Positions 24,172 through 36,978 of a stretch of 64,000 nucleotides of DNA are shown here, piece after piece. Origin of the DNA: Patescibacteria group bacterium (GTDB lineage Bacteria > Patescibacteriota > Patescibacteriia > UBA1558 > GWA2-36-10); assembly GCA_041665545.1 (NCBI GenBank), contig JBAYIQ010000002.1:2369-66368 (forward strand), read 5' to 3'. A program made the translations under genes and the position numbers. The notes beneath the pieces are model-generated. The model was not told the origin of the DNA. It did not search any database and saw only the letters and a program-made list of their open reading frames with translations. How positions within the stretch are numbered: the first letter of the stretch is position 1; each line of letters starts with the position of its first letter.

Positions 24172-24729
24172 ATGCCAACTATCGCTATTATTATCTTGGT
24201 CGTTGTCGTGGCCTTGATACTTTGGGCCATCGGCATCTACAACGGTTTGATCACTCTCAAAAACCGAGTCAAAGAAGCTTGGTCAGACATTGATGTCCAG
24301 CTCAAAAGACGCTATGACTTGATCCCCAACTTGGTTGAGACAGTCAAGGGCTACATGAAGCATGAAGCTGGAGTTTTTGTCAAAGTGACCGAAGCCCGAT
24401 CGACAGCTATGCAAGCCAAGGGCACAGCCGAAAAAGCCAAGGCCGAAAATGCCTTGTCTGAATCACTAAAAAGCTTGTTTGCCGTGGCCGAGGGCTATCC
24501 AGATCTCAAGGCCTCACAAAACTTTTTGCAACTACAAGACGAGATCTCTGACACCGAAAACAAAATTCAGGCCTCTCGCCGCTTCTACAATGGACAGGTG
24601 CGCGACTTCAACACCAAAATCCAGGTCTTCCCTAATAATTTTTTTGCCAACCTGATGCACTTTGTGGCTTTTGAATTTTTTGGAATAGAAAACAAAGAAG
24701 AAAAAGAAAACGTCAAAGTTCAGTTTTAA
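24172..24729 (+). CDS. lemA: LemA family protein
   Basis: 185 aa; N-terminal TM plus the LemA signature region ([38 protein letters not shown]). Confidence 0.85.
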
Positions 24730-25026: not shown

Positions 25027-25089
25027 CCCCCGCAAATTGACACCAAACATCAATAATGTTATATTATCGTAACTATAATCTAAAAAACT

Positions 25090-25968
25090 ATGTATAAGCA
25101 AATTGCTAGTAACAAACGAAAAAGCTACTTATTAATGCTTTTATTTTTCGTGGTTTTGGTAGGCATTGTTTGGGTCTATTCCCAATATTTTGGTACAGAT
25201 TCGGGCTATAGTATGGTTATTTTTGCTGTAATATTGGCCACAGGCATGAACCTAGTCAGCTTTTATGCTGGAGACTCTATTGCCTTGAGTATAGCTGGTG
25301 CTAAGCCAATCAACAAAGAAAAAAATCCTTATGTCTATAGAATGGTAGAAAACCTCAGTATCACAGCTGGACTGCCGATGCCCAAAATATATATTATTTC
25401 TGACCCAGCCATGAATGCTTTTGCTACTGGACGCGACCCCAAGCACGCCTCCATTGCTCTGACCTCTGGCATTATCGAGGGCTTGGAAAATGAAGAGCTA
25501 GAAGGCGTCATTGCTCATGAACTTTCACATGTCAAAAATTATGACATCCGCCTGATGATGATAGTAATAGTCTGTGTTGGCGTCATTGCTCTGCTAGCCG
25601 ACTGGATGACTCGCAGTTTGTTTTGGCGTAACAGGGACAACAATGAACGCGGAAATAACGGAATATTTCTAATTATTGGTTTGGTTTTGGCTATATTATC
25701 TCCAATTTTTGCTAAACTCATCCAGCTAGCTATTTCCCGCAAGCGTGAATTTCTAGCTGATGCTTCGGGTGCGCTTTTGACTCGCTACCCAGAGGGATTG
25801 GCACGCGCTTTGGAGAAAATATCTAGCCAAAAAAAAGCCCTACGCCACGCCAACAAAGCCACCGCCCATCTCTACATTGCCAATCCTTTTGGTAGTGAGA
25901 AAATGGCTAATTTGTTTTCCACACATCCACCGGTGGCAGCACGACTAGCGGCCTTAAGATCTATGTAA
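25090..25968 (+). CDS. htpX: zinc metalloprotease HtpX (M48 family)
   Basis: 292 aa with HELSHV (HExxH) and membrane topology typical of HtpX. Confidence 0.85.
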   Translation: MYKQIASNKRKSYLLMLLFFVVLVGIVWVYSQYFGTDSGYSMVIFAVILATGMNLVSFYAGDSIALSIAGAKPINKEKNPYVYRMVENLSITAGLPMPKIYIISDPAMNAFATGRDPKHASIALTSGIIEGLENEELEGVIAHELSHVKNYDIRLMMIVIVCVGVIALLADWMTRSLFWRNRDNNERGNNGIFLIIGLVLAILSPIFAKLIQLAISRKREFLADASGALLTRYPEGLARALEKISSQKKALRHANKATAHLYIANPFGSEKMANLFSTHPPVAARLAALRSM

Positions 25969-28536: not shown

Positions 28537-28815
28537 ATGATTCCCGTTAGAAATTCCCAATGGTTTGTTTATATTATCCTGTGCAAGGATGATCTTTATT
28601 ATGTTGGCCTAACCAATGACATTAGTAAGAGATTTGATCAACACTTGAGTGGCCTGGGATCAAAATTTACCGCTAAACACGGGGTGAAAGAGTTAGTTTA
28701 TGTGGAGTAATATGATGATTTTGATTGTGCGAGATATAGAGAAAAAGAAATAAAAGATTGGAGCAGGATCAAAAAAGAAAAACTCATTAATGGGCAGTGG
28801 GGTAAAATTATGTAA
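28537..28815 (+). pseudogene. GIY-YIG nuclease family gene interrupted by an in-frame TAA (codon 58; GAA in the intact paralog)
   Basis: Translation MIPVRNSQWFVYIILCKDDLYYVGLTNDISKRFDQHLSGLGSKFTAKHGVKELVYVE*YDDFDCARYREKEIKDWSRIKKEKLINGQWGKIM is ~90% identical to the 9795-10070 product apart from the stop. Confidence 0.7.
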
Positions 28816-28900: not shown

Positions 28901-29566
28901 ATGATTCCTTTTAGCCAATATCTAAATAATTTTTTAGATTATATATTCCCTCAATTTTGTTTGGGCTGTAAGCAAGAAGGAAATATATTTTGTGATTCTT
29001 GTCTAAACAAATTAGAATTACTACCCGACAACCAGAAACCCTGGCCTGAGGAAAATTTTTTGTTTGATGAGTGCCATATTTGCCTTGATTATCACGATCC
29101 AGTTGTCAAAAAATTAATTAAAAAATATAAATATGGCTATTTTGACAACTTGGCCAATCCAATTGCCGCGGTCTATATCAAAAAAATAAACAATTTAAAT
29201 TTAAATAATGCTTTTATTATCTGCAATGTTCCTCTGCACAAACGCAAAAAGAAAAAACGTGGCTTTGACCAAACCGAATTAATTGCCAAAAAAATTAGTG
29301 CTAATACTCAAATCCCCTATTTTGATTTATTAAACCGCCAGCGTTTCACCAAAGCACAAGCCGAGCTTGATAAAGAGCAACGACAAAAAAATATGTCGCA
29401 AGCTTTTGTGATTAACAAAAAAATTAACTCACTGGAGTTAATTAATCACCCTGTATTATTGATTGACGATATTGCCACCACTGGCACCACTCTGAATGAG
29501 GCCTCTCGTGCCCTCCAACAAGCTGGTTTTAAACAAATTATTTGCCTAGCCTTAGCTAAAAACTAA
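28901..29566 (+). CDS. comFC: ComF-family protein (phosphoribosyltransferase-domain competence protein)
   Basis: 221 aa with an N-terminal Zn-finger (CLGCKQEGNIFCDSC) and a C-terminal PRTase motif (VLLIDDIATTGTTL). Confidence 0.75.
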   Translation: MIPFSQYLNNFLDYIFPQFCLGCKQEGNIFCDSCLNKLELLPDNQKPWPEENFLFDECHICLDYHDPVVKKLIKKYKYGYFDNLANPIAAVYIKKINNLNLNNAFIICNVPLHKRKKKKRGFDQTELIAKKISANTQIPYFDLLNRQRFTKAQAELDKEQRQKNMSQAFVINKKINSLELINHPVLLIDDIATTGTTLNEASRALQQAGFKQIICLALAKN

Positions 29567-29601
29567 AAACGCAGCCTATACAATTTTTTCTGGTGATTCC
29601 A

Positions 29602-30153
29602 TTATTTAAATTCACTAAAGGTAATTACAGAAAGATTGTCCATATTGTGGCCATAGTGCTTGAAAACTTCCCGCGCATCGCCATCAAATCTTTTTTCCCA
29701 ATCAATCTCTAGTTGATTACAGATATTTTTTAGAGATTCCACTGACGCTCCTTCCAGCTCCACATAAGCTGGTGTCTTTGGCCAGGTGTCAATATCAATA
29801 ATTACATCGCCAAGTTGGAATGTGTGTCGATATTTTTCTATTTGTCGTATAGCCCTTAATCCAATTTTATTAAAAAGTTCCGAACATTTATTTAAATCCG
29901 ATACTTCCAGTTCAATTTCCTCAGCACTGTCTACTGTCTGTTTTTCGTTACTTTTATAGGTCAGCTTTATTTTACCTTTGGTTTTTCGGAGTCGTACAAA
30001 TTTATTCTTCCCCTTCCATGACATAGCTTGATCATAGAAAATTATTTCCTCCAGTTTTTCCTCATCTTTATCAATAGCGCCAAGCGAAACGAGTTTTTTC
30101 ATGAGCTCGTCTTTGTTTATATCAAGAAATCTTGTTTCTATTTCTTTTTCCAT
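29602..30153 (-). CDS. CYTH-domain protein (CyaB/ThTPase-like)
   Basis: 183 aa; the N-terminal EIETRFL motif and the alternating acidic/basic beta-strand pattern of CYTH domains. Confidence 0.6.
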   Translation of the reverse strand: MEKEIETRFLDINKDELMKKLVSLGAIDKDEEKLEEIIFYDQAMSWKGKNKFVRLRKTKGKIKLTYKSNEKQTVDSAEEIELEVSDLNKCSELFNKIGLRAIRQIEKYRHTFQLGDVIIDIDTWPKTPAYVELEGASVESLKNICNQLEIDWEKRFDGDAREVFKHYGHNMDNLSVITFSEFK

Positions 30154-30248
30154 AATATCTGTTTAAAAAACTTGGCGGAGAGTGAAGCCCGCCGTCGCTT
30201 CGCTTTGGCGGTACTTTGGCGGGTAAAGATTCTCACCGATAAATAATC

Positions 30249-30338
30249 TGGCGGAGAGTGAGGGATTCGAACCCCCGATCCCCTTGCAGGGATAACAGTT
30301 TTCAAGACTGTCGCATTCGACCGCTCTGCCAACTCTCC
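30249..30338 (-). tRNA. tRNA-Ser (anticodon TGA), 90 nt including encoded CCA
   Basis: Manual cloverleaf: acceptor GGAGAGT/ACTCTCC, anticodon stem ACAGT/ACTGT, loop CTTGAAA, long variable arm, T-loop TTCGAAT, 3' GCCA. Confidence 0.8.
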
Positions 30339-30445
30339 GGGTCTATAATAAATTGTAAGCTTTGTTGTTTTTTATTAGTAAGTGGTTGAGGGTTTGAAAA
30401 ACCCGAAACCACGAGCGAGCCCAAGCTATGCTTGGGCGAGTCGAG

Positions 30446-30521
30446 TGGTGACCCCGGCAGGAATCGAACCTGCAACCTTTTGGACCGCAACCAAACGCTC
30501 TATCCATTGAGCTACGAGGCC
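30446..30521 (-). tRNA. tRNA-Arg (anticodon GCG), 76 nt including CCA
   Basis: Manual cloverleaf: D-stem GCTC/GAGC, anticodon stem TTTGG/CCAAA, loop TTGCGGT, 5-nt variable loop, T-arm GCAGG TTCGATT CCTGC, 3' ACCA. Confidence 0.7.
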
Positions 30522-30533
30522 ATGTTAAAAAAA

Positions 30534-31145
30534 TTATTGGTTTATTTTTGTTTTACGAAATTTTTTGCGGAAGTAATAAAAAATTAAAGCCAGAACCGCA
30601 ATTATTAAAATAACATCTAACACTTCGCTGTATTTACGAACCAAAGCCCAATTATCTCCTAAAGAGTAGCCAGCATAAGCCAATATTGAATTCCAAAGGC
30701 CAGCTCCCAAAGTGGTGTAGATAATAAATTTTCCTAATTTCATTTTGCCAGTGCCAGCGGGAATGGAAATCAAGTGTCTAACTATTGGAATAAAACGGCT
30801 AATAAAAATTGTTTTATCCCCAAATTTATTAAAAAAATTTTCAGTTTTTACTAAATGATGTTCATTGAGTAAAAACCATTTACCGTATTTAATTATCAAA
30901 GGGCGTCCACCATATAGACCCAAGCCATAGGAAAGCAGTGAGCCGATAATACTACCAATGGTGCTGCTAATAACAATTAAGACAAAAGACATCTGTCCAG
31001 AATGCCACAGGAAGCCAGCAAAAGGCATGACCGCCTCACTGGGCACGGGCAGTATCATGCTCTCCAAAACCATCAAAAATCCTAAGCCATAATAAGAACC
31101 AGCCGAAATAATATTAGTGAAAAGATCAACCAGGTATTCAACCAT
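30534..31145 (-). CDS. dedA: DedA family membrane protein
   Basis: 203 aa; GLGFLMVLESMILPVPSE is the DedA/SNARE-associated signature. Confidence 0.8.
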   Translation of the reverse strand: MVEYLVDLFTNIISAGSYYGLGFLMVLESMILPVPSEAVMPFAGFLWHSGQMSFVLIVISSTIGSIIGSLLSYGLGLYGGRPLIIKYGKWFLLNEHHLVKTENFFNKFGDKTIFISRFIPIVRHLISIPAGTGKMKLGKFIIYTTLGAGLWNSILAYAGYSLGDNWALVRKYSEVLDVILIIAVLALIFYYFRKKFRKTKINQ

Positions 31146-31181
31146 TTTTTATTTTTTAATTTAAACTAGTTTATTCGACAC

Positions 31182-31273
31182 TAAATTATGGTGGCGGAGA
31201 GGGCGAGATTCGAACTCGCGGACCAGTTTAACCCGGTCAACAACTTAGCAGGTTGCTGCTTTAAGCCACTCAG
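31182..31273 (-). tRNA. tRNA-Ser (anticodon GCT), 92 nt including CCA
   Basis: Manual cloverleaf: acceptor GGAGAGG/CCTCTCC, anticodon loop CTGCTAA, long variable arm TGACCGGGTTAAACTGGTC, T-loop TTCGAAT. Confidence 0.8.
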
Positions 31274-31487
31274 CCACCTCTCCACAGTAATACATCAATT
31301 AAATTTCCCGAAAAAATTTATTACAAATAAAATATAAATTGGCAATTAAGCCCCGTATATGAGCGTAGCGAATTGTACGGGGCACCTCTCCGTGCATAAA
31401 TCAGCTTATATAGTAATATATTTTGTTGATTTTGGCAAGGGTGCTAATGTTCAAAATAAACAGCCTATTTTTTGTTTACCAAACATA

Positions 31488-31516
31488 TTGACACTGCATT
31501 TTGGCTGTGATATATT
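31488..31516 (+). promoter_or_regulatory. near-consensus sigma70 promoter (TTGACA, 17 nt, TATATT with TGn extension)
   Basis: TTGACA at 31488-31493, a 17-nt spacer, and TGaTATATT ending at 31516, about 50 nt upstream of the GGGAGG RBS and ATG at 31568. Confidence 0.6.
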
Positions 31517-31567
31517 GCCTTGTTATCAATCAGAACCTACCACCATCAACCCTTGGGAGGCGTGCAA

Positions 31568-32101
31568 ATGTCTAGGGTCAAAAAGGTGTGCCTGATCGTT
31601 CCCTTGGCCTGTGATCTGGCTGAGCAAGGCCGCAAGCTTGGACCCGAATCAATCTGGCGCTTGAGAAAAGCGCTCGGAGTCTATTACTCAAAACTAGCCG
31701 ACGGCTGGCAGGTCATGTTCACCTTCAGCGCTGGCATGGCTCCGCCCAAAAGCTGTCCCAATCAGACCATGTCCATGAGTTTTCTTCAGCGGCAATTCTT
31801 AAGCTATTTAGGAGTTGCCGACCAACACATGGGCTACACCACCAAACCAAGCTGGGGAAGCCGTGCCGAAATGGCCGAGGCCTTGACTCAGGCCAACACC
31901 ATGGGTCAAGGAGAAATCGAAGTCATCTTCGTCTCCAGCTGGTACCACCTGCCCCGCCTGCGCCTACTTCTCCGCCAGCACCTTGGGGCTGAAAAGGCCA
32001 GACTCAACATCACTATCAGCTTCAATGCTTCTCGCGGTCGGCTCATCAACGCCCTCAAGGAGCCAGCCAAGTTGTTGGTGCAGTTCTTGGGCCTAGCGTG
32101 A
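31568..32101 (+). CDS. DUF218 (YdcF/ElyC/SanA-like) domain protein encoded by a GC-rich (~55-60%) gene
   Basis: Start refined to the ATG at 31568 after a GGGAGG RBS; SSWYHLPR resembles the DUF218 signature. Composition is strongly atypical for this window. Confidence 0.55.
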   Translation: MSRVKKVCLIVPLACDLAEQGRKLGPESIWRLRKALGVYYSKLADGWQVMFTFSAGMAPPKSCPNQTMSMSFLQRQFLSYLGVADQHMGYTTKPSWGSRAEMAEALTQANTMGQGEIEVIFVSSWYHLPRLRLLLRQHLGAEKARLNITISFNASRGRLINALKEPAKLLVQFLGLA

Positions 32102-32117
32102 GCCCTCGTTGTGTGTG

Positions 32118-32155
32118 CGGCGGCGATCCATCGGGATCGCCGCCGCCTTTTTTAT
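32118..32155 (+). terminator. Rho-independent terminator (13-bp GC stem GCGGCGGCGATCC/GGATCGCCGCCGC, 4-nt loop, T7 tail)
   Basis: Read directly from the sequence, 17 nt after the stop of the GC-rich gene. Confidence 0.85.
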
Positions 32156-32196
32156 TTTCCGGCTAATATGTTATAATATAGGCATAATATAAAAAT

Positions 32197-32793
32197 ATGG
32201 CTAATGAAAAAAAAGAACCAACAGATGCTAAGGAAACTAGCAACCAAATCGGTAATTATGTCGATTATGGACAAATTTTGGCTTCCTGGCAGTTTCCCGA
32301 ACACATAAAACACGAACGTAGCTTAAAGTGGTATGTTTTCTTTTTTCTGATACTAGCGGCCATTATTTTGGTCTCAATAGTTGGACTAGACATTACTTTT
32401 TTTAGGATCGCCGGCGGACCATTTGCCCTGACCATTGATAAAGGTAATTATTTATTCGTGATTTTGATTGTTTTGTTCCTGATACTGTATTTTTACTATG
32501 AACGCAAAGAAATAGAAAATATAGTTATATTTTTGACTGAAGATGGTGTGGTTATCAACAACAAATTAATTGAATATAGCTCCTTGGACCACTTTTATAT
32601 TGTCTATTATCCACCAAAAATACAAAATCTATACTTACAGCCCAAAAATATACTACGACCAGTGATTGTCGTACCCTTGGAAAATGAAAATCCAATTGAA
32701 GTCCGAGAAATTTTACTGCGCTACCTCGAAGAAAATCTAGAAAAGGAAGAAATGCCAGCCAGCGAGTCCTTATCAAAAGTTTTAAAATTATAA
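32197..32793 (+). CDS. hypothetical membrane protein
   Basis: 198 aa with two hydrophobic segments and no recognised motif. Confidence 0.4.
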   Translation: MANEKKEPTDAKETSNQIGNYVDYGQILASWQFPEHIKHERSLKWYVFFFLILAAIILVSIVGLDITFFRIAGGPFALTIDKGNYLFVILIVLFLILYFYYERKEIENIVIFLTEDGVVINNKLIEYSSLDHFYIVYYPPKIQNLYLQPKNILRPVIVVPLENENPIEVREILLRYLEENLEKEEMPASESLSKVLKL

Positions 32794-32852: not shown

Positions 32853-34985
32853 ATGGCAAAAAATTTTTTTTATCATACTCCTCTCTCTGAATTGCACGCT
32901 ATAACTTCTGGCCTGCAAAAAGATTTTAATAAATTAGAAATAAAAACAGTCGGCGATCTGCTGTGGTATTTTCCTTTTAGATATGACGACTTAAGTGAAG
33001 TAAAAAAAATTAGCGAGCTGACTGATGACGAGCTAACTACTATCAAAGTAAGTATTTTAAAAATACGCTCTTTTCGCTCTTGGAAAAGAAAAATAATGAT
33101 TACCGAAATCGTAGTCACTGATGGTGAGGAACAATTGACCGCTACTTGGTTTAATCAAAAATTTGTCAGCCAAATATTAAAAATCGGCGATGAAGTTTTT
33201 TTGAACGGCAAACTGCAAATGAAGGGCACCAAATATCTAATGTCCAATCCTAGCTATGAAAAAGTCAAAGACCGACCTCTGCATAGCGCCCGCTTGGTGC
33301 CCAACTATCATCTCAGTGGGAAAATAACCCAAAAACAATTGCGTTTTGTGATTGATAAGGCCCTAAAAATAGCCCCTAGCGTCGAAGACCCCTTTCCCGT
33401 GGAAATATTAAACAAAGAAAAATACCCCTGGCTGTTTGAAGCCCTAGAGCAAATTCATTTTCCCGGTGATTTAGTTCATTTGGAAAAAGCCATTCAAAGA
33501 CTAAAATTTCAAGAGCTATTTTATCTGCAACTCAAATACCAGCTAGCCAAAAAAGATTACCAAAACAACCCCACTTATCAAATACCAACTGCTAAAATAT
33601 TTTTAAATAAAATAATCAAAAATTTACCATTCCGACTGACCGCTGATCAGCTAGAATCCTTAGATGAAGTATTGAGCGATATTGCTAAAACCCAACCCAT
33701 GAATCGACTGTTGGAGGGCGATGTTGGCTCGGGCAAGACAATAGTGGCCATGCTATCTGCTTTTAGCGTCATAAAAAACGGACAGCAAGTGGCTTTCATG
33801 GCGCCCACTGAAATATTGGCCCGCCAACACTACCTAAATGCTCTGAAATTATGGCCCACGCTTTTAGCCAAAAATACCGCCCTATTGAGCAGTAGCCAAC
33901 AATTAGTGGGCTTGGAAGAAAAATCAACTAAACAAAATATTTCTAAATTATTAGCCAATGGCAAAATAAAATTAATTTTTGGCACCCATAGCTTGATTCA
34001 AGATAATATTTCTTTTAAAGATTTGGCTCTAGTAATTATCGACGAACAGCATCGTTTTGGCGTCAAACAAAGACAGGCCTTGAAAACAAAAAATAATAAC
34101 AATTTTGTGCCACATCTTTTGTCTATGACCGCCACACCCATTCCTCGCACTCTGTCACTCACTCTCTATGGCGATCTAGATATTTCTTTGATTAAAAGCA
34201 AACCACTAGGTAGACAAATTGTAAAAACTTTTCTAGTGCCAGAAAAAAAACGGCTTGATGCTTATAATTTTATCCGCGAAAAAATAAAAGCCGGTCAACA
34301 AGCTTTTATTATCTGTCCGCTAATAGATGAAAGTGACCCGTCTCGCCAACCAGCTTCGCCAGCGAAGCTGGGCGAGGGCAAGGCCGAGGCGGACAAACTG
34401 GGCGCCAAATCAGTACTTAAAGAATACGAAAAAATAAAAAATGAAATTTTCCCAGATTTAAATATTGCCATGCTCCATGGCCAGATGTCAGCCGAAGAAA
34501 AAAATGCTGTCATGACTGATTTCAAAGCCAAAAAAAGCTCCATATTGGTAGCCACCTCTGTCATTGAGGTTGGGGTGGATATACCGGGTGCAACTTTGAT
34601 GCTTATCGAAAGCGCCGAAAGATTCGGACTGTCACAACTGCATCAATTCCGTGGCCGAGTTGGTCGTAATGATTTGGAAAGTTTTTGCCTGCTTTTTACT
34701 AGCGACCCCACCAAACAAACCACTAAACGACTCCAAATTTTGACATCAGAAAATGATGGTTTCAAGCTAGCGGAATTGGACTTGGAGCTCCGAGGCAGTG
34801 GCTCGATATTTGGTACCAAACAAACCGGCTTGATGCCCTTAAAAATTGCCACTCTTACCGACACTGTCTTATTAAAAAAAGCCCAAGAGTGGGCTCGGAA
34901 AATAATAACTAATAAAAAGTATCGCTCACAAACTCAGGTCGTAAAACTGCTTGAGGATCTAAAAACCGAAATGCATTTGGAATAA
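32853..34985 (+). CDS. recG: ATP-dependent DNA helicase RecG
   Basis: 710 aa with an N-terminal wedge/OB region and helicase motifs GDVGSGKT, DEQHRFG and QLHQFRGRVGR. Confidence 0.9.
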   Translation: MAKNFFYHTPLSELHAITSGLQKDFNKLEIKTVGDLLWYFPFRYDDLSEVKKISELTDDELTTIKVSILKIRSFRSWKRKIMITEIVVTDGEEQLTATWFNQKFVSQILKIGDEVFLNGKLQMKGTKYLMSNPSYEKVKDRPLHSARLVPNYHLSGKITQKQLRFVIDKALKIAPSVEDPFPVEILNKEKYPWLFEALEQIHFPGDLVHLEKAIQRLKFQELFYLQLKYQLAKKDYQNNPTYQIPTAKIFLNKIIKNLPFRLTADQLESLDEVLSDIAKTQPMNRLLEGDVGSGKTIVAMLSAFSVIKNGQQVAFMAPTEILARQHYLNALKLWPTLLAKNTALLSSSQQLVGLEEKSTKQNISKLLANGKIKLIFGTHSLIQDNISFKDLALVIIDEQHRFGVKQRQALKTKNNNNFVPHLLSMTATPIPRTLSLTLYGDLDISLIKSKPLGRQIVKTFLVPEKKRLDAYNFIREKIKAGQQAFIICPLIDESDPSRQPASPAKLGEGKAEADKLGAKSVLKEYEKIKNEIFPDLNIAMLHGQMSAEEKNAVMTDFKAKKSSILVATSVIEVGVDIPGATLMLIESAERFGLSQLHQFRGRVGRNDLESFCLLFTSDPTKQTTKRLQILTSENDGFKLAELDLELRGSGSIFGTKQTGLMPLKIATLTDTVLLKKAQEWARKIITNKKYRSQTQVVKLLEDLKTEMHLE

Positions 34986-34986
34986 A

Positions 34987-35916
34987 CTAATCACCTCCAC
35001 AACGACTAGCGTCTATACCCCACTCACCTCCTACTGGCGCACACTTATCAGCACGATAAGGTATGTCCTCACAACACCAGGTTCTAGAATCTGGATTATT
35101 TTCAATTTGACAATCACTATTACTAGAACATGATTTTGTTCTTAAATCTGAACAAATTGTGCTCCAATAACAAACCTCACCTAGTGGAGAGGTGCCATTT
35201 TTAAAATTTTTACCATAACAGGCATTAACGCGGCAGTTTGGTTCATCCAAAGCATCCATGAAATATCTAATACCTTCATAACCACTTGAGGAGTAGGTTC
35301 TTTCTGATGAAATGGGAAATTCTATTTGCAGACAATCTATAACCGTACTTGGTGCTGTGGCAGCTACTGCTGTTGTATCTAGGCATTTGCCAGTAGCCGT
35401 GGCATCAAGGGCTATCTGTTCTGGAGTGGCCTTTACCCACTTACAACTAGGTGCTGGACAAGATTTTTCTATAGTAAACACCGAACAAGTAAGTTTTGGT
35501 AAATCCCTGTTCAGTGGCTCAAAAGATACTAAACGCTGACTAATTAGTGATAACAATATATAGCCCCCAAACAAAAGAGCCAAACCAATCAAGGTGCTAT
35601 TGATCTTGTCTCGAGCACTAGATATTTTGGATGAATTACCACCAGCCAGTAACCACTCCCAGCCAGCATAGACCAACATAAACATAGCCACCACCCCAGC
35701 AAACATACCGCCATAGCGGTATATACCAACAATGTATTTGGCTAAAGATGAGCCATCAACTAAAAATGGCTCTCCGGCTGTATAAAGCCCAGGAATAGTC
35801 ATGGATGGTATAAACTCTAGTGGCGTAGTATTTTCCTTATCAGCGGCTATTACAATATTGGCCAACACAAAACCAAGAGAAAAAATCAGCAATAAAATTA
35901 TTTTTTTATTTTTCAT
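34987..35916 (-). CDS. VirB2/TrbC-like pilin-fold membrane protein with Cys-rich C-terminal domain (paralog A)
   Basis: 309 aa with a signal peptide and two hydrophobic helices separated by a short polar loop (GMFAGVVAMFMLVYAGWEWLLAGG-NSSKISSARDKIN-STLIGLALLFGGYILLSLIS). The C-terminus has ~18 Cys. The N-terminal 150 aa are near-identical to 35932-36978. Confidence 0.45.
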   Translation of the reverse strand: MKNKKIILLLIFSLGFVLANIVIAADKENTTPLEFIPSMTIPGLYTAGEPFLVDGSSLAKYIVGIYRYGGMFAGVVAMFMLVYAGWEWLLAGGNSSKISSARDKINSTLIGLALLFGGYILLSLISQRLVSFEPLNRDLPKLTCSVFTIEKSCPAPSCKWVKATPEQIALDATATGKCLDTTAVAATAPSTVIDCLQIEFPISSERTYSSSGYEGIRYFMDALDEPNCRVNACYGKNFKNGTSPLGEVCYWSTICSDLRTKSCSSNSDCQIENNPDSRTWCCEDIPYRADKCAPVGGEWGIDASRCGGD

Positions 35917-35931
35917 GAAAAAATTCTATAA

Positions 35932-36978
35932 TCAATTTAATTGAAAGTGCCACCATTCGGTATCAAGTTGTTTAAAACCAGCACTACGCATTGTTTGAAG
36001 CAAAACCCATTGAGCATCATACAATCCAGGTACTCCGGCGCAAGGAGCAGGATTGGAGTGATTGTCCATGGCGCAATTGTATGCTTTGTTAATATACCCA
36101 CAGGTATCAACCGTGGAATTCTTAATGCAAATATCCACCGCTGTTCCAGTTTGGTGAGGAGCATCACAACCTGGTTTAGCCGCTTCATTACACGAGCGAC
36201 AACCAGTGGGACAAGTATTACCATCCTTATTAATATAACAATCATACAACTCCTTTTGTAAGGCCGTTGTACGATAAGCGCTATTTATTTGTAAACTATG
36301 CCCAGGATAGGCATTCAAAAATATTACTGCACTTCCTAGAGCTGAAATTGTCGGGCCAGTCAACCTGCAATCGGTGCACTCCGAACTAAGAATAATACCA
36401 CTAACTTGTATCGGCTTAACCAATGACTCTGAAGGACAAGCCGTAGACGCCAACGACAAAGCGTCTTTACAAAAACCCAAAACTTTTGGATCTTTTGCCA
36501 ACTCCTCGGCTGTAGCTGGAATCCAAAAACATCTAGCTTTGGTGCATTCATCTGGTTTACTAAAAGCCATACAAATTGCTTTCACATCAGGCAAAGCTGT
36601 ATTCAGTGGTTTAAATTTTACTAAATTTTCGCTAATCAAAGAAAGCAAAATATAGCCACCAAATAAAAGTGCTAAGCCAATCAGCGTGCCATTGATCTTG
36701 TCTCGAGCACTAGATATTTTGGATGAGTTACCCCCAGCCAGTAGCCATTCCCAGCCAGCATAGACCAGCATAAACATAGCCACCACGCCAGCAAACATAC
36801 CACCATAACGGTAAATGCCAACAATATATCTGGCTAAAGTTCCTCCATCTACCGTAACTTCCTTTGTGAATTCACTACCGGGTATATCGATGCTCGGTTT
36901 GAATTCTATAGCCATTACTAAAAGCGGCAAAAATATTGCTGTTACAAAATAAAAAGTTATTAAAAACTTTTTTAACAT
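35932..36978 (-). CDS. fusion protein: VirB2/TrbC-like membrane module plus C-terminal peptidase M15 (VanY/D-Ala-D-Ala carboxypeptidase-like) domain (paralog B)
   Basis: 348 aa with the same N-terminal module as paralog A. The C-terminus carries LAS/M15 zinc-hydrolase motifs SAYRTTALQKELY, HQTGTAVDI and EWWHFQ. Confidence 0.55.
   Translation of the reverse strand: MLKKFLITFYFVTAIFLPLLVMAIEFKPSIDIPGSEFTKEVTVDGGTLARYIVGIYRYGGMFAGVVAMFMLVYAGWEWLLAGGNSSKISSARDKINGTLIGLALLFGGYILLSLISENLVKFKPLNTALPDVKAICMAFSKPDECTKARCFWIPATAEELAKDPKVLGFCKDALSLASTACPSESLVKPIQVSGIILSSECTDCRLTGPTISALGSAVIFLNAYPGHSLQINSAYRTTALQKELYDCYINKDGNTCPTGCRSCNEAAKPGCDAPHQTGTAVDICIKNSTVDTCGYINKAYNCAMDNHSNPAPCAGVPGLYDAQWVLLQTMRSAGFKQLDTEWWHFQLN

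Follow-up and report, generated by a model that had tools for sequence, protein, structure and literature searches.

A gene whose base composition stands far above that of its surroundings and which lies beside a tRNA gene raises the question of whether it has recently arrived from a foreign donor. This question is posed here by a 64-kb stretch of DNA (64,000 nt) from a Patescibacteria group bacterium, which is referred to below as the window and to whose positions all coordinates refer unless another record is named. It contains a cassette on the plus strand (31466-32153), in which a promoter, a ribosome-binding site (RBS), a single open reading frame (ORF) for a DUF218/YdcF-like protein, and a terminator can be read in the sequence. 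An original prediction, made from the letters of the window, regarded this cassette as recently acquired by horizontal transfer from a high-GC donor. The comparison with related genomes leads to a different view: the cassette is probably an old accessory single-gene unit, which persists in the form of recombining allele lineages in a variable slot of the genome.

The close relatives sampled for this comparison (L003, L004, L007, L009, and L014) have RecG proteins that are at least 90% identical, and all of them show the same gene order, consisting of a DedA/tRNA block, the cassette, a gene for a membrane protein of 195-198 aa (198 aa in the window, hence called TM198), and recG. Their cassette alleles contain 52-55% GC in a background of 38-40%. 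Conserved synteny across the lineage had been named in the original prediction itself as an outcome at variance with a recent arrival, and together with the equal GC content of the gene in all sampled close relatives it argues against this part of the proposal. Among the species-representative genomes, siblings were found with RecG proteins of 93%, 90%, 78%, 77%, and 61% identity, of which the two closest carry the gene. Among 5.8 billion proteins, just six clusters are close to the cassette protein; all those with recoverable DNA come from the same lineage and the same slot, and the sixth one, P0006, is available as a protein only. The high-GC donor that had been postulated is not found among these proteins either. 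A profile search of 1.84 billion representatives retrieved about 114 relatives, with a gap from 295 bits within the clade of the gene itself to at most 106 bits for the next relatives, and those of the latter that are readable lie on contigs of 41-47% GC, their genes exceeding the surroundings by just 3.5-6 GC points.

The alleles of the cassette are far more diverged than the DNA in which they are embedded. Those with available DNA belong to class A (window and L003), class B (L004 and L014), and class C (L007 and L009), and P0006 represents a fourth allele of 47% identity. The flanking DNA of the relatives is 85-98% identical, compared with 42-70% for the cassette DNA between classes, and the DedA, membrane, and RecG proteins are 90-100% identical, compared with 47-69% for the cassette protein between classes. 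The number of synonymous substitutions per site (dS) between classes ranges from 0.8 to more than 3, which is saturated, and that of non-synonymous ones (dN) from 0.19 to 0.34, with dN/dS values of 0.11-0.26. No window of 30 codons shows a higher proportion of non-synonymous than of synonymous differences (pN > pS), giving no sign of positive selection at that resolution, and the cassette protein is under purifying selection, as judged from these ratios. Since the synonymous divergence among the alleles is saturated, the gene should be older than the clade carrying it. This saturation, as well as the lack of a net GC loss in the intact alleles, is hard to reconcile with the recent acquisition originally proposed.

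Within the classes, the cassette has diverged to the same extent as its surroundings. The cassette dS amounts to 0.43 between the window and L003 (flanks, 0.28-0.60), to 0.35 between L004 and L014 (flanks, 0.33), and to 0.18 between L007 and L009 (flanks, 0.16), which indicates a normal mutation rate of the cassette and rules out hypermutation. The tree of the alleles, in turn, conflicts with that of the flanks. L003 and L007 differ by a dS of 0.01 in the DedA gene and of 0.06 in recG, whereas their cassette proteins, which belong to classes A and C, are 60% identical, with a dS of about 3. Counted per 50 nt, mismatches between these two genomes number 0-1 through DedA and the tRNAs, 15-33 from the left boundary motif of the cassette, TATTTTTTGTTTAC, through the terminator, and 1-5 in a 3' tail through the next gene; such a sharp 5' edge with a mild 3' tail is typical of a homologous recombination tract. 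Classes B and C are mosaic, having in common their promoter type and the 3' third of the gene (codons 121-165, pS 0.18-0.20), as against a pS of 0.6-0.8 in codons 1-105. The differences are spread over all bases and over the whole gene. Conservation of the -35 element, the extended -10 element, a motif in the 5' untranslated region (5'UTR), and the terminator stem across the classes suggests that the whole cassette arose once and that the gene pool studied here is where the alleles separated, and the promoter, being AT-rich like the host and homologous across the alleles, likewise argues for a divergence inside this pool.

The island character of the cassette, as originally proposed, is real, and its slot at the side of the tRNA genes is a variable site. 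Presence or absence in the more distant siblings refers here to the slot only: it is empty in L013 (RecG 78% identical), where tRNA-Ser(TGA) lies 72 bp before the membrane-protein gene, and it is occupied by a Na/Ca exchanger gene in L022 (RecG 61%) and by an unrelated orphan ORF of 131 aa and 55% GC in L011 (3732-4127, minus strand; RecG 77%). These three records and the genomes carrying the cassette have the same right flank, TTTTTTATTTT, followed by TGTTATAAT, the promoter of the next gene, so that both the T-run of the terminator and the downstream promoter of TM198 are present in the empty slot of L013 as well as in L011 and L022. Because this flank is common to empty and differently filled slots, the right edge of the cassette should be placed at the terminator stem, and the T-run belongs to the ancestral flank. 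An exact search for the terminator in JGI metagenome contigs gave no match, and a profile scan gave distant partial matches only. No relative was found in viral contigs, and a phage origin was rejected on this ground.

The orphan gene of L011 likewise comes with a promoter-like region and with a terminator, GCCCCGAAT...ATTCGGGGC, whose stem is GCCCCG, and the encoded 131-aa protein has no match in Pfam, PADLOC, or PHROG. Its sole homologue is 63% identical and again placed next to tRNA-Ser(TGA), in L053 (575-970) and L054 (414-809); the adjoining tRNAs are identical although the two known orphan alleles share just these 63%. Positions 1-357 of L053, with 55-71% GC per 100-nt window, have no counterpart in L054, which is 98% identical elsewhere, and probably represent a chimeric assembly join. 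The sibling records L010, L011, L013, L021, and L022 are titled 'uncultured Gammaproteobacteria bacterium', and their gene content and their similarity to the Patescibacteria window indicate that these titles are mislabelled taxonomy.

The self-contained organization of the cassette as one gene with its own promoter, a GGGAGG RBS, and a terminator with a 13-bp GC stem had been recognized correctly in the original prediction, at or near the positions found here. Its left boundary is given by the motif TATTTTTTGTTTAC (31466-31479, plus strand), as judged from a four-way alignment of the upstream regions, the junction sequences, and the mismatch map of L003 and L007. This motif is the final stretch common to all relatives ahead of the allele-specific cassette, and the invertible tRNA-DedA block described below has its right-hand breakpoint here as well. 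The predicted sigma-70-type promoter (31488-31516, plus strand) is composed of TTGACA (31488-31493), a 17-nt spacer, and the extended -10 element TGaTATATT (31508-31516), with TG at 31508-31509 and TATATT at 31511-31516, and thus matches the consensus in 11 of 12 positions in addition to the -10 extension. TG-extended sites with 11 of 12 matches occur twice in the 64 kb when both strands are counted, compared with 0.21 expected from block shuffles. In an alignment of four alleles, the -35 and extended -10 elements are invariant between the diverged classes, whereas the spacer and the surroundings vary. The same alignment contains invariant or nearly invariant columns within otherwise diverged sequence that correspond to the 5'UTR motif ATCAATCAGAACCTACCA (31525-31542, plus strand), for which neither an Rfam match nor a predicted stable fold was obtained; CCUACC within this motif could pair imperfectly with the GGGAGG of the RBS. 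The latter is read directly as a Shine-Dalgarno sequence (31555-31560, plus strand) 7 nt ahead of the ATG, and the other alleles carry purine-rich counterparts at its position. The ORF itself (31568-32101, plus strand; ATG start, 55% GC) encodes 177 aa and represents allele class A. A predicted intrinsic terminator (32117-32153, plus strand) follows, with a perfect 13-bp stem (32117-32129 and 32134-32146), a 4-nt loop (ATCG), and a T-run; 11 of the 13 pairs are G-C, the folding energy is -29.8 kcal/mol (z = -6.1), and none of 200 shuffled sequences folds as well. The stem is invariant in the relatives, and the loop is present in flipped forms: it reads ATCG in the window (32130-32133), CGAT in L003, GCGT in L004, L009, and L014, and ACGC in L007, so that ATCG and CGAT as well as GCGT and ACGC are reverse complements on an invariant 13-bp stem, which looks like a flip-flop through recombination within the palindrome. 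The alternative that the locus encodes a structured RNA rather than a protein was ruled out, given the lack of an Rfam match at gathering as well as E-value thresholds and the low dN/dS.

The second TG-extended promoter match in the window (25037-25065) is located just upstream of a gene for an M48 peptidase (25090-25968). The LemA gene adjoining the latter (24172-24729) ranks second in the window both in GC content at third codon positions (GC3, 0.54) and in the deviation of its codon usage.

With regard to base composition, the gene was described in the original prediction as strongly GC-rich in a genome of about 37% GC, of which the first part holds, with 55.3% GC, and the background has to be corrected to 40.0%. 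This corresponds to a z-value of 4.1 for windows of equal length, and the maximum of the entire window falls on this gene. Its GC contents at the first, second, and third codon positions are 0.54, 0.44, and 0.67, compared with means of 0.46, 0.34, and 0.37 for the 52 ORFs and a next highest GC3 of 0.54, and its Karlin codon bias versus the other ORFs is 0.64, the top value of the 52 (mean 0.31, standard deviation 0.09). The windowed GC and codon-usage checks suggested in the original prediction identify the gene as the strongest outlier of all 52 ORFs. The encoded protein is also skewed toward amino acids with GC-rich codons (glycine, alanine, arginine, and proline, GARP; 28% vs 21%). The genes for ribosomal protein S6 and SSB in the window are not GC-rich, with GC3 values of 0.40 and 0.48, so the deviation of the cassette is not a signature of high expression, and codon bias of highly expressed genes was discarded as the cause of its high GC content.

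A view on the direction of the substitutions gives some indication of how this composition behaves over time. Every class has a GC3 of 0.58-0.68 despite the saturated divergence, whereas the substitution spectrum of the flanking genes corresponds to an equilibrium GC3 of 0.34. Differences within classes were polarised by parsimony, using the other classes as outgroups. In the intact alleles, 36 GC-to-AT changes face 28 AT-to-GC changes over all positions and 20 face 16 at third positions. For these, the flank spectrum, when applied to the composition of the cassette, would lead one to expect 76% GC-to-AT (binomial p = 0.0096). In the L014 allele, GC-to-AT and AT-to-GC changes number 15 and 2 overall and 11 and 0 at third positions (Fisher p = 0.0085 versus the intact alleles). 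This class B allele (L014, 4666-5184) contains an in-frame TAG at about codon 27, corresponding to position 29 of the window protein, and an arginine in place of the otherwise invariant Cys15, and it is probably a pseudogene. A low-complexity ORF of 245 aa (L014, 3767-4504) is inserted upstream of it. The counts are suggestive, and only suggestive, of a high GC3 that is maintained as long as the gene is intact and decays once it is broken. The GC richness may stem from codon or mRNA selection, from biased gene conversion at a site prone to recombination, or from residence in a GC-rich reservoir that has escaped sampling.

In the scenario considered probable here, the cassette would have entered, or have been assembled in, the slot before the sampled clade diverged, and its long-lived allelic lineages would since have been swapped between genomes via homologous recombination in the conserved flanks. 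The DNA may be exchanged by natural transformation, in keeping with the competence of Patescibacteria. Type IV pili and ComF, both encoded in the window, make an uptake of DNA plausible, and type IV secretion-like genes are present as well. The consensus promoter and the RBS would provide for constitutive and strong transcription and translation, with a 5'UTR of about 45 nt as estimated from the position of the -10 element, and the terminator should insulate the downstream operon of the membrane-protein gene and recG. The GC-rich composition of the coding region would be sustained either through selection or through biased gene conversion, rather than being a donor signature that simply fades.

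Several observations weigh against this scenario. No integrase or mobility gene is present among the neighbours and no clear target-site duplication was found, the sole repeat at the edges being imperfect and T-rich (TTTTTTGTTT and TTTTTTATTT). The alleles with DNA number six, all of them from metagenome assemblies, and the stop codon within the L014 allele might stem from faulty assembly or sequencing. The polarised counts are small, and noise is to be expected from parsimony when the outgroups are saturated. Finally, no donor was found for the GC-rich composition.

Among the other explanations, the recent acquisition by the window genome from a high-GC donor would account for the strong deviation in composition and codon usage, for the position at the tRNA side, and for the slot lacking the gene in more distant siblings. 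It has become very improbable, since the gene is found in the same slot and at equal GC in every sampled close relative, the dS between alleles is saturated, no homologue of more than 47% identity exists outside the lineage among the 5.8 billion proteins and none above 106 bits among the 1.84 billion representatives, the AT-rich, host-like promoter is homologous across the alleles, and no relatives were found in viral contigs. A foreign origin of another kind is conceivable in a source-sink relationship, in which the classes would have separated elsewhere, for example in a phage, in a plasmid, or in the bacterium on which these epibionts live, such a reservoir having about 55-60% GC and having escaped sampling, and recombination would have brought them into the slot several times. 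This would fit the GC3 of 0.58-0.68 in all classes despite saturation, the amino acid skew (GARP 28% vs 21%), and the finding that the slot also takes the unrelated GC-rich orphan of L011, which recurs in L053 and L054. It is nevertheless rather unlikely, as no reservoir sequence turned up in any collection searched, the 5'UTR motif, the terminator, and the promoter, which is AT-rich like the host, are homologous across the classes, and the divergence within classes tracks that of the flanks without a net loss of GC. The opposite case of a native, vertically inherited gene, which would be GC-rich through codon, mRNA, or protein selection alone and would have been lost in the siblings, is in accord with the conserved synteny, the purifying selection, the very strong expression signals, and a GC3 apparently maintained in intact alleles and decaying in the interrupted one. 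This case is still to be considered unlikely in view of the conflict between allele and flank trees, the empty or differently filled slot in siblings, the lack of GC richness in the S6 and SSB genes, and the fact that the GC content is raised at first and second codon positions as well.

The 30-45% divergence of the cassette between nearly identical flanks and its very strong promoter might also be taken as signs of localised hypermutation or of very fast evolution in place, for example associated with transcription or driven by a retroelement. The equality of cassette and flank dS within classes, the low dN/dS throughout, the mosaic blocks indicating recombination, and the divergence being limited neither to certain bases nor to one variable region render this highly improbable; in addition, a repeat scan of positions 29500-32300 revealed no second copy of any part of the gene within that span (reverse transcriptases were not searched for). 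An assembly artefact, a contamination, or a chimeric contig could be suspected because all sequences stem from metagenome assemblies and L053 looks chimeric at one end, yet identical junctions on both sides in independent assemblies from ENA, Logan, JGI, and NCBI make this scarcely credible. A farther-reaching version of the scenario given above would hold that the alleles of a cytoplasmic DUF218 enzyme represent a balanced long-term polymorphism, that a GC3 about 30 points above equilibrium is actively maintained across saturating divergence, be it through selection or biased gene conversion, and that the slot serves as a dedicated landing place for GC-rich, strongly expressed single-gene cassettes, including the orphan of L011, L053, and L054, which would play a part in conflicts of these bacteria with phages or with their host bacterium. 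We regard this as doubtful, and the old accessory cassette with recombining alleles as the probable explanation.

The identity of the encoded protein as a DUF218 member, as stated in the original prediction, finds support when the alleles are taken together, though less so for the window protein alone, which reaches 21.9 bits (E = 1.8e-4) with Pfam DUF218 (PF02698) and remains below the curated cut-off of 27.6 bits. DUF218 is the sole Pfam family matched by all six alleles (best E = 7e-7), and P0006 has a precomputed match to PF02698. Nine of ten distant subfamily members tested, with lengths of about 170-200 aa, score above the Pfam cut-off, and an hhalign comparison with an annotated YdcF-family protein gave a probability of 53% (E = 1.3e-4). 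An alignment of 20 sequences shows G25, G56, W96, E101, V122, H127, R130, and E165 as invariant and D16, Q66, S124, Y126, and K168 as nearly invariant. The VSSWYHxPR motif (VSSWYHLPR in the window protein) resembles the family motif (T/S)SxxHxxR, with SSWYH aligning to SSNYH of the YdcF-family protein, and the window protein thus keeps the Ser/Thr-x-x-His-x-x-Arg motif of the family and an invariant Glu (E101). An AlphaFold2 model calculated from the 20-sequence alignment has a mean predicted local distance difference test value (pLDDT) of 91.9, and the top Foldseek match in the PDB by probability and by template modelling score is E. coli YdcF (3CA8; probability 0.99, template modelling score 0.50, E 0.016-0.02); according to the model, the fold is of the Rossmann-like, YdcF-type alpha/beta kind. 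An earlier AlphaFold2 model from six sequences gave no meaningful Foldseek match, and a sequence-profile search of the PDB gave noise alone and did not reach 3CA8. Models of NCBIfam, PADLOC, and PHROGs do not match the cassette protein. No membrane segment was noted, the N-terminus being modelled as the first beta-strand, although no dedicated predictor of signal peptides or transmembrane segments was run. A link of DUF218 to polymorphic toxins or to cyclic-oligonucleotide-based antiphage signalling systems (CBASS) was dropped, because the matches in the literature referred to DUF2185 and DUF2188 and were irrelevant.

The evidence from sequence and model points to a divergent, short, cytoplasmic DUF218/YdcF-like member, which may be soluble and, in the manner of YdcF, act as an alpha/beta-type enzyme or bind a ligand. 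SanA and ElyC of E. coli are periplasmic regulators of envelope polymer synthesis, the function of SanA requires a Thr-His-Glu triad, and YdcF is their cytosolic paralogue, which binds S-adenosylmethionine (PMC12176290). The comparison with the SanA triad refers to the level of motifs. Like YdcF, the cassette protein appears to be devoid of a membrane anchor, but it is far shorter (177 vs about 260 residues). It differs from SanA and ElyC in apparently lacking their periplasmic, membrane-anchored topology, and the roles in peptidoglycan or enterobacterial common antigen synthesis are therefore not simply transferable to it. Distant subfamily members in readable contexts, which are found on short contigs, show weak GC elevation and no common neighbourhood. 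One of them, P0012 (L051, 2476-3057; L052, 2389-2970), comes from a groundwater contig, where its gene stands alone between dnaJ and dnaK and is read from the opposite strand. This gene has a promoter-like site with TTGACA and a terminator formed by a GC hairpin, and it exceeds its surroundings by only 3.5 GC points; this is another single-gene, insertion-like context.

The neighbourhood on the left side of the cassette consists of a block in which three tRNA genes surround DedA, namely tRNA-Ser(TGA) (30249-30338), tRNA-Arg (30446-30521), DedA (30534-31145), and tRNA-Ser(GCT) (31192-31283, minus strand; identified with ARAGORN and Rfam). The placement of the cassette next to a tRNA cluster and directly beside tRNA-Ser(GCT) in the original prediction is accurate insofar as tRNA genes adjoin it, but tRNA-Ser(GCT) ends 284 bp before the ATG, and the cluster comprises just these three tRNAs with DedA amid them. 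The block (about 30172-31465) is inverted in L003, L007, and L008 relative to the window, L004, L009, and L014, so the neighbour of the cassette is tRNA-Ser(TGA) in the former three and tRNA-Ser(GCT) in the window. As both orientations occur within classes A and C, the inversion must be recurrent or reshuffled by recombination. No long or convincing inverted repeats were found at the ends of the block.

Between tRNA-Ser(GCT) and the cassette, the window genome alone contains a 108-bp insert (31284-31391, no strand assigned), which is absent from L004 and L014 and carries a GCCCCGTA...TACGGGGC hairpin (31350-31383). The hairpin had been taken for the upstream edge of the cassette; it is real, but lies outside of it. 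A direct repeat, CACCTCTCC (31275-31283 and 31383-31391), bounds the insert and represents a duplication of the tRNA-Ser(GCT) 5' end, and the ends of the insert align with those of an insertion of about 350 bp containing a GIY-YIG gene at the same site in L009. The hairpin was accordingly dismissed as a cassette edge and assigned to the relic of a GIY-YIG insertion. Small GIY-YIG endonuclease genes occur at differing tRNA-adjacent sites in L009 (943-1194) and L014 (2161-2457), and an ORF fragment of 57 aa in the window (28537-28710) is GIY-YIG-like according to a motif recognised by eye.

On the right side, a patch in recG of the window (34305-34424) is 42-45% identical to the relatives, compared with 85-98% elsewhere, and the window RecG has 710 aa instead of 691 aa, which together suggest that a segment was inserted or replaced in this lineage. 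L003 and L007 likewise differ from each other in a small part of recG (L003, 3401-3850). The two genes beyond recG (34987-35916 and 35932-36978, minus strand) encode proteins of 309 and 348 aa without a strong Pfam match, the first of which has a Cys-rich C-terminus; they are paralogues, as indicated by their cross-match in tblastn, and the pair is far less conserved in the relatives than recG.

The locus may be compared with two kinds of known systems. Conserved flanks that enclose divergent alleles are a pattern known from bacteria, with surface-glycan 'replacement flexible islands' and pherotype or immunity loci as examples of replacement-type loci. The cassette shares with these the conserved flanks, the deep mosaic alleles, the tree conflict, and a recombination tract ending in the neighbouring gene. 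It differs from them in that the variable unit is a small, cytoplasmic, enzyme-like protein rather than a surface or recognition determinant, and in that neither a co-varying partner (toxin, receptor, or signal) nor a window with pN > pS is present. Genomic islands and islets next to tRNA genes, which arise from horizontal transfer and gene exchange, have been reported in Patescibacteria (PMC12455944). The cassette resembles such islets in its deviating composition and codon usage, in its tRNA-side site, and in the variation of presence or content among relatives. Unlike classical islets, it consists of a single gene, no integrase, clear direct repeats, or donor were found, and it is old and not visibly ameliorating. 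The locus is a new small example both of islands with gene exchange and of the pattern of divergent alleles, and its protein represents a new short branch of DUF218.

As it stands, this is a well-characterised and fairly ordinary accessory locus, which nevertheless defines a rare short DUF218 branch (about 114 representatives among 1.84 billion) and illustrates on a small natural scale how recombination replaces alleles in Patescibacteria. It shows that what looks like a textbook case of a foreign GC island beside a tRNA gene may have a long history and several alleles, with a composition that seems to be kept rather than to fade, and that GC deviation alone is a poor clock for acquisition. 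If the maintenance of the GC content and the long-lived polymorphism hold true, the locus would offer a tractable case for selection on base composition and for the exchange of accessory genes in ultra-small bacteria.

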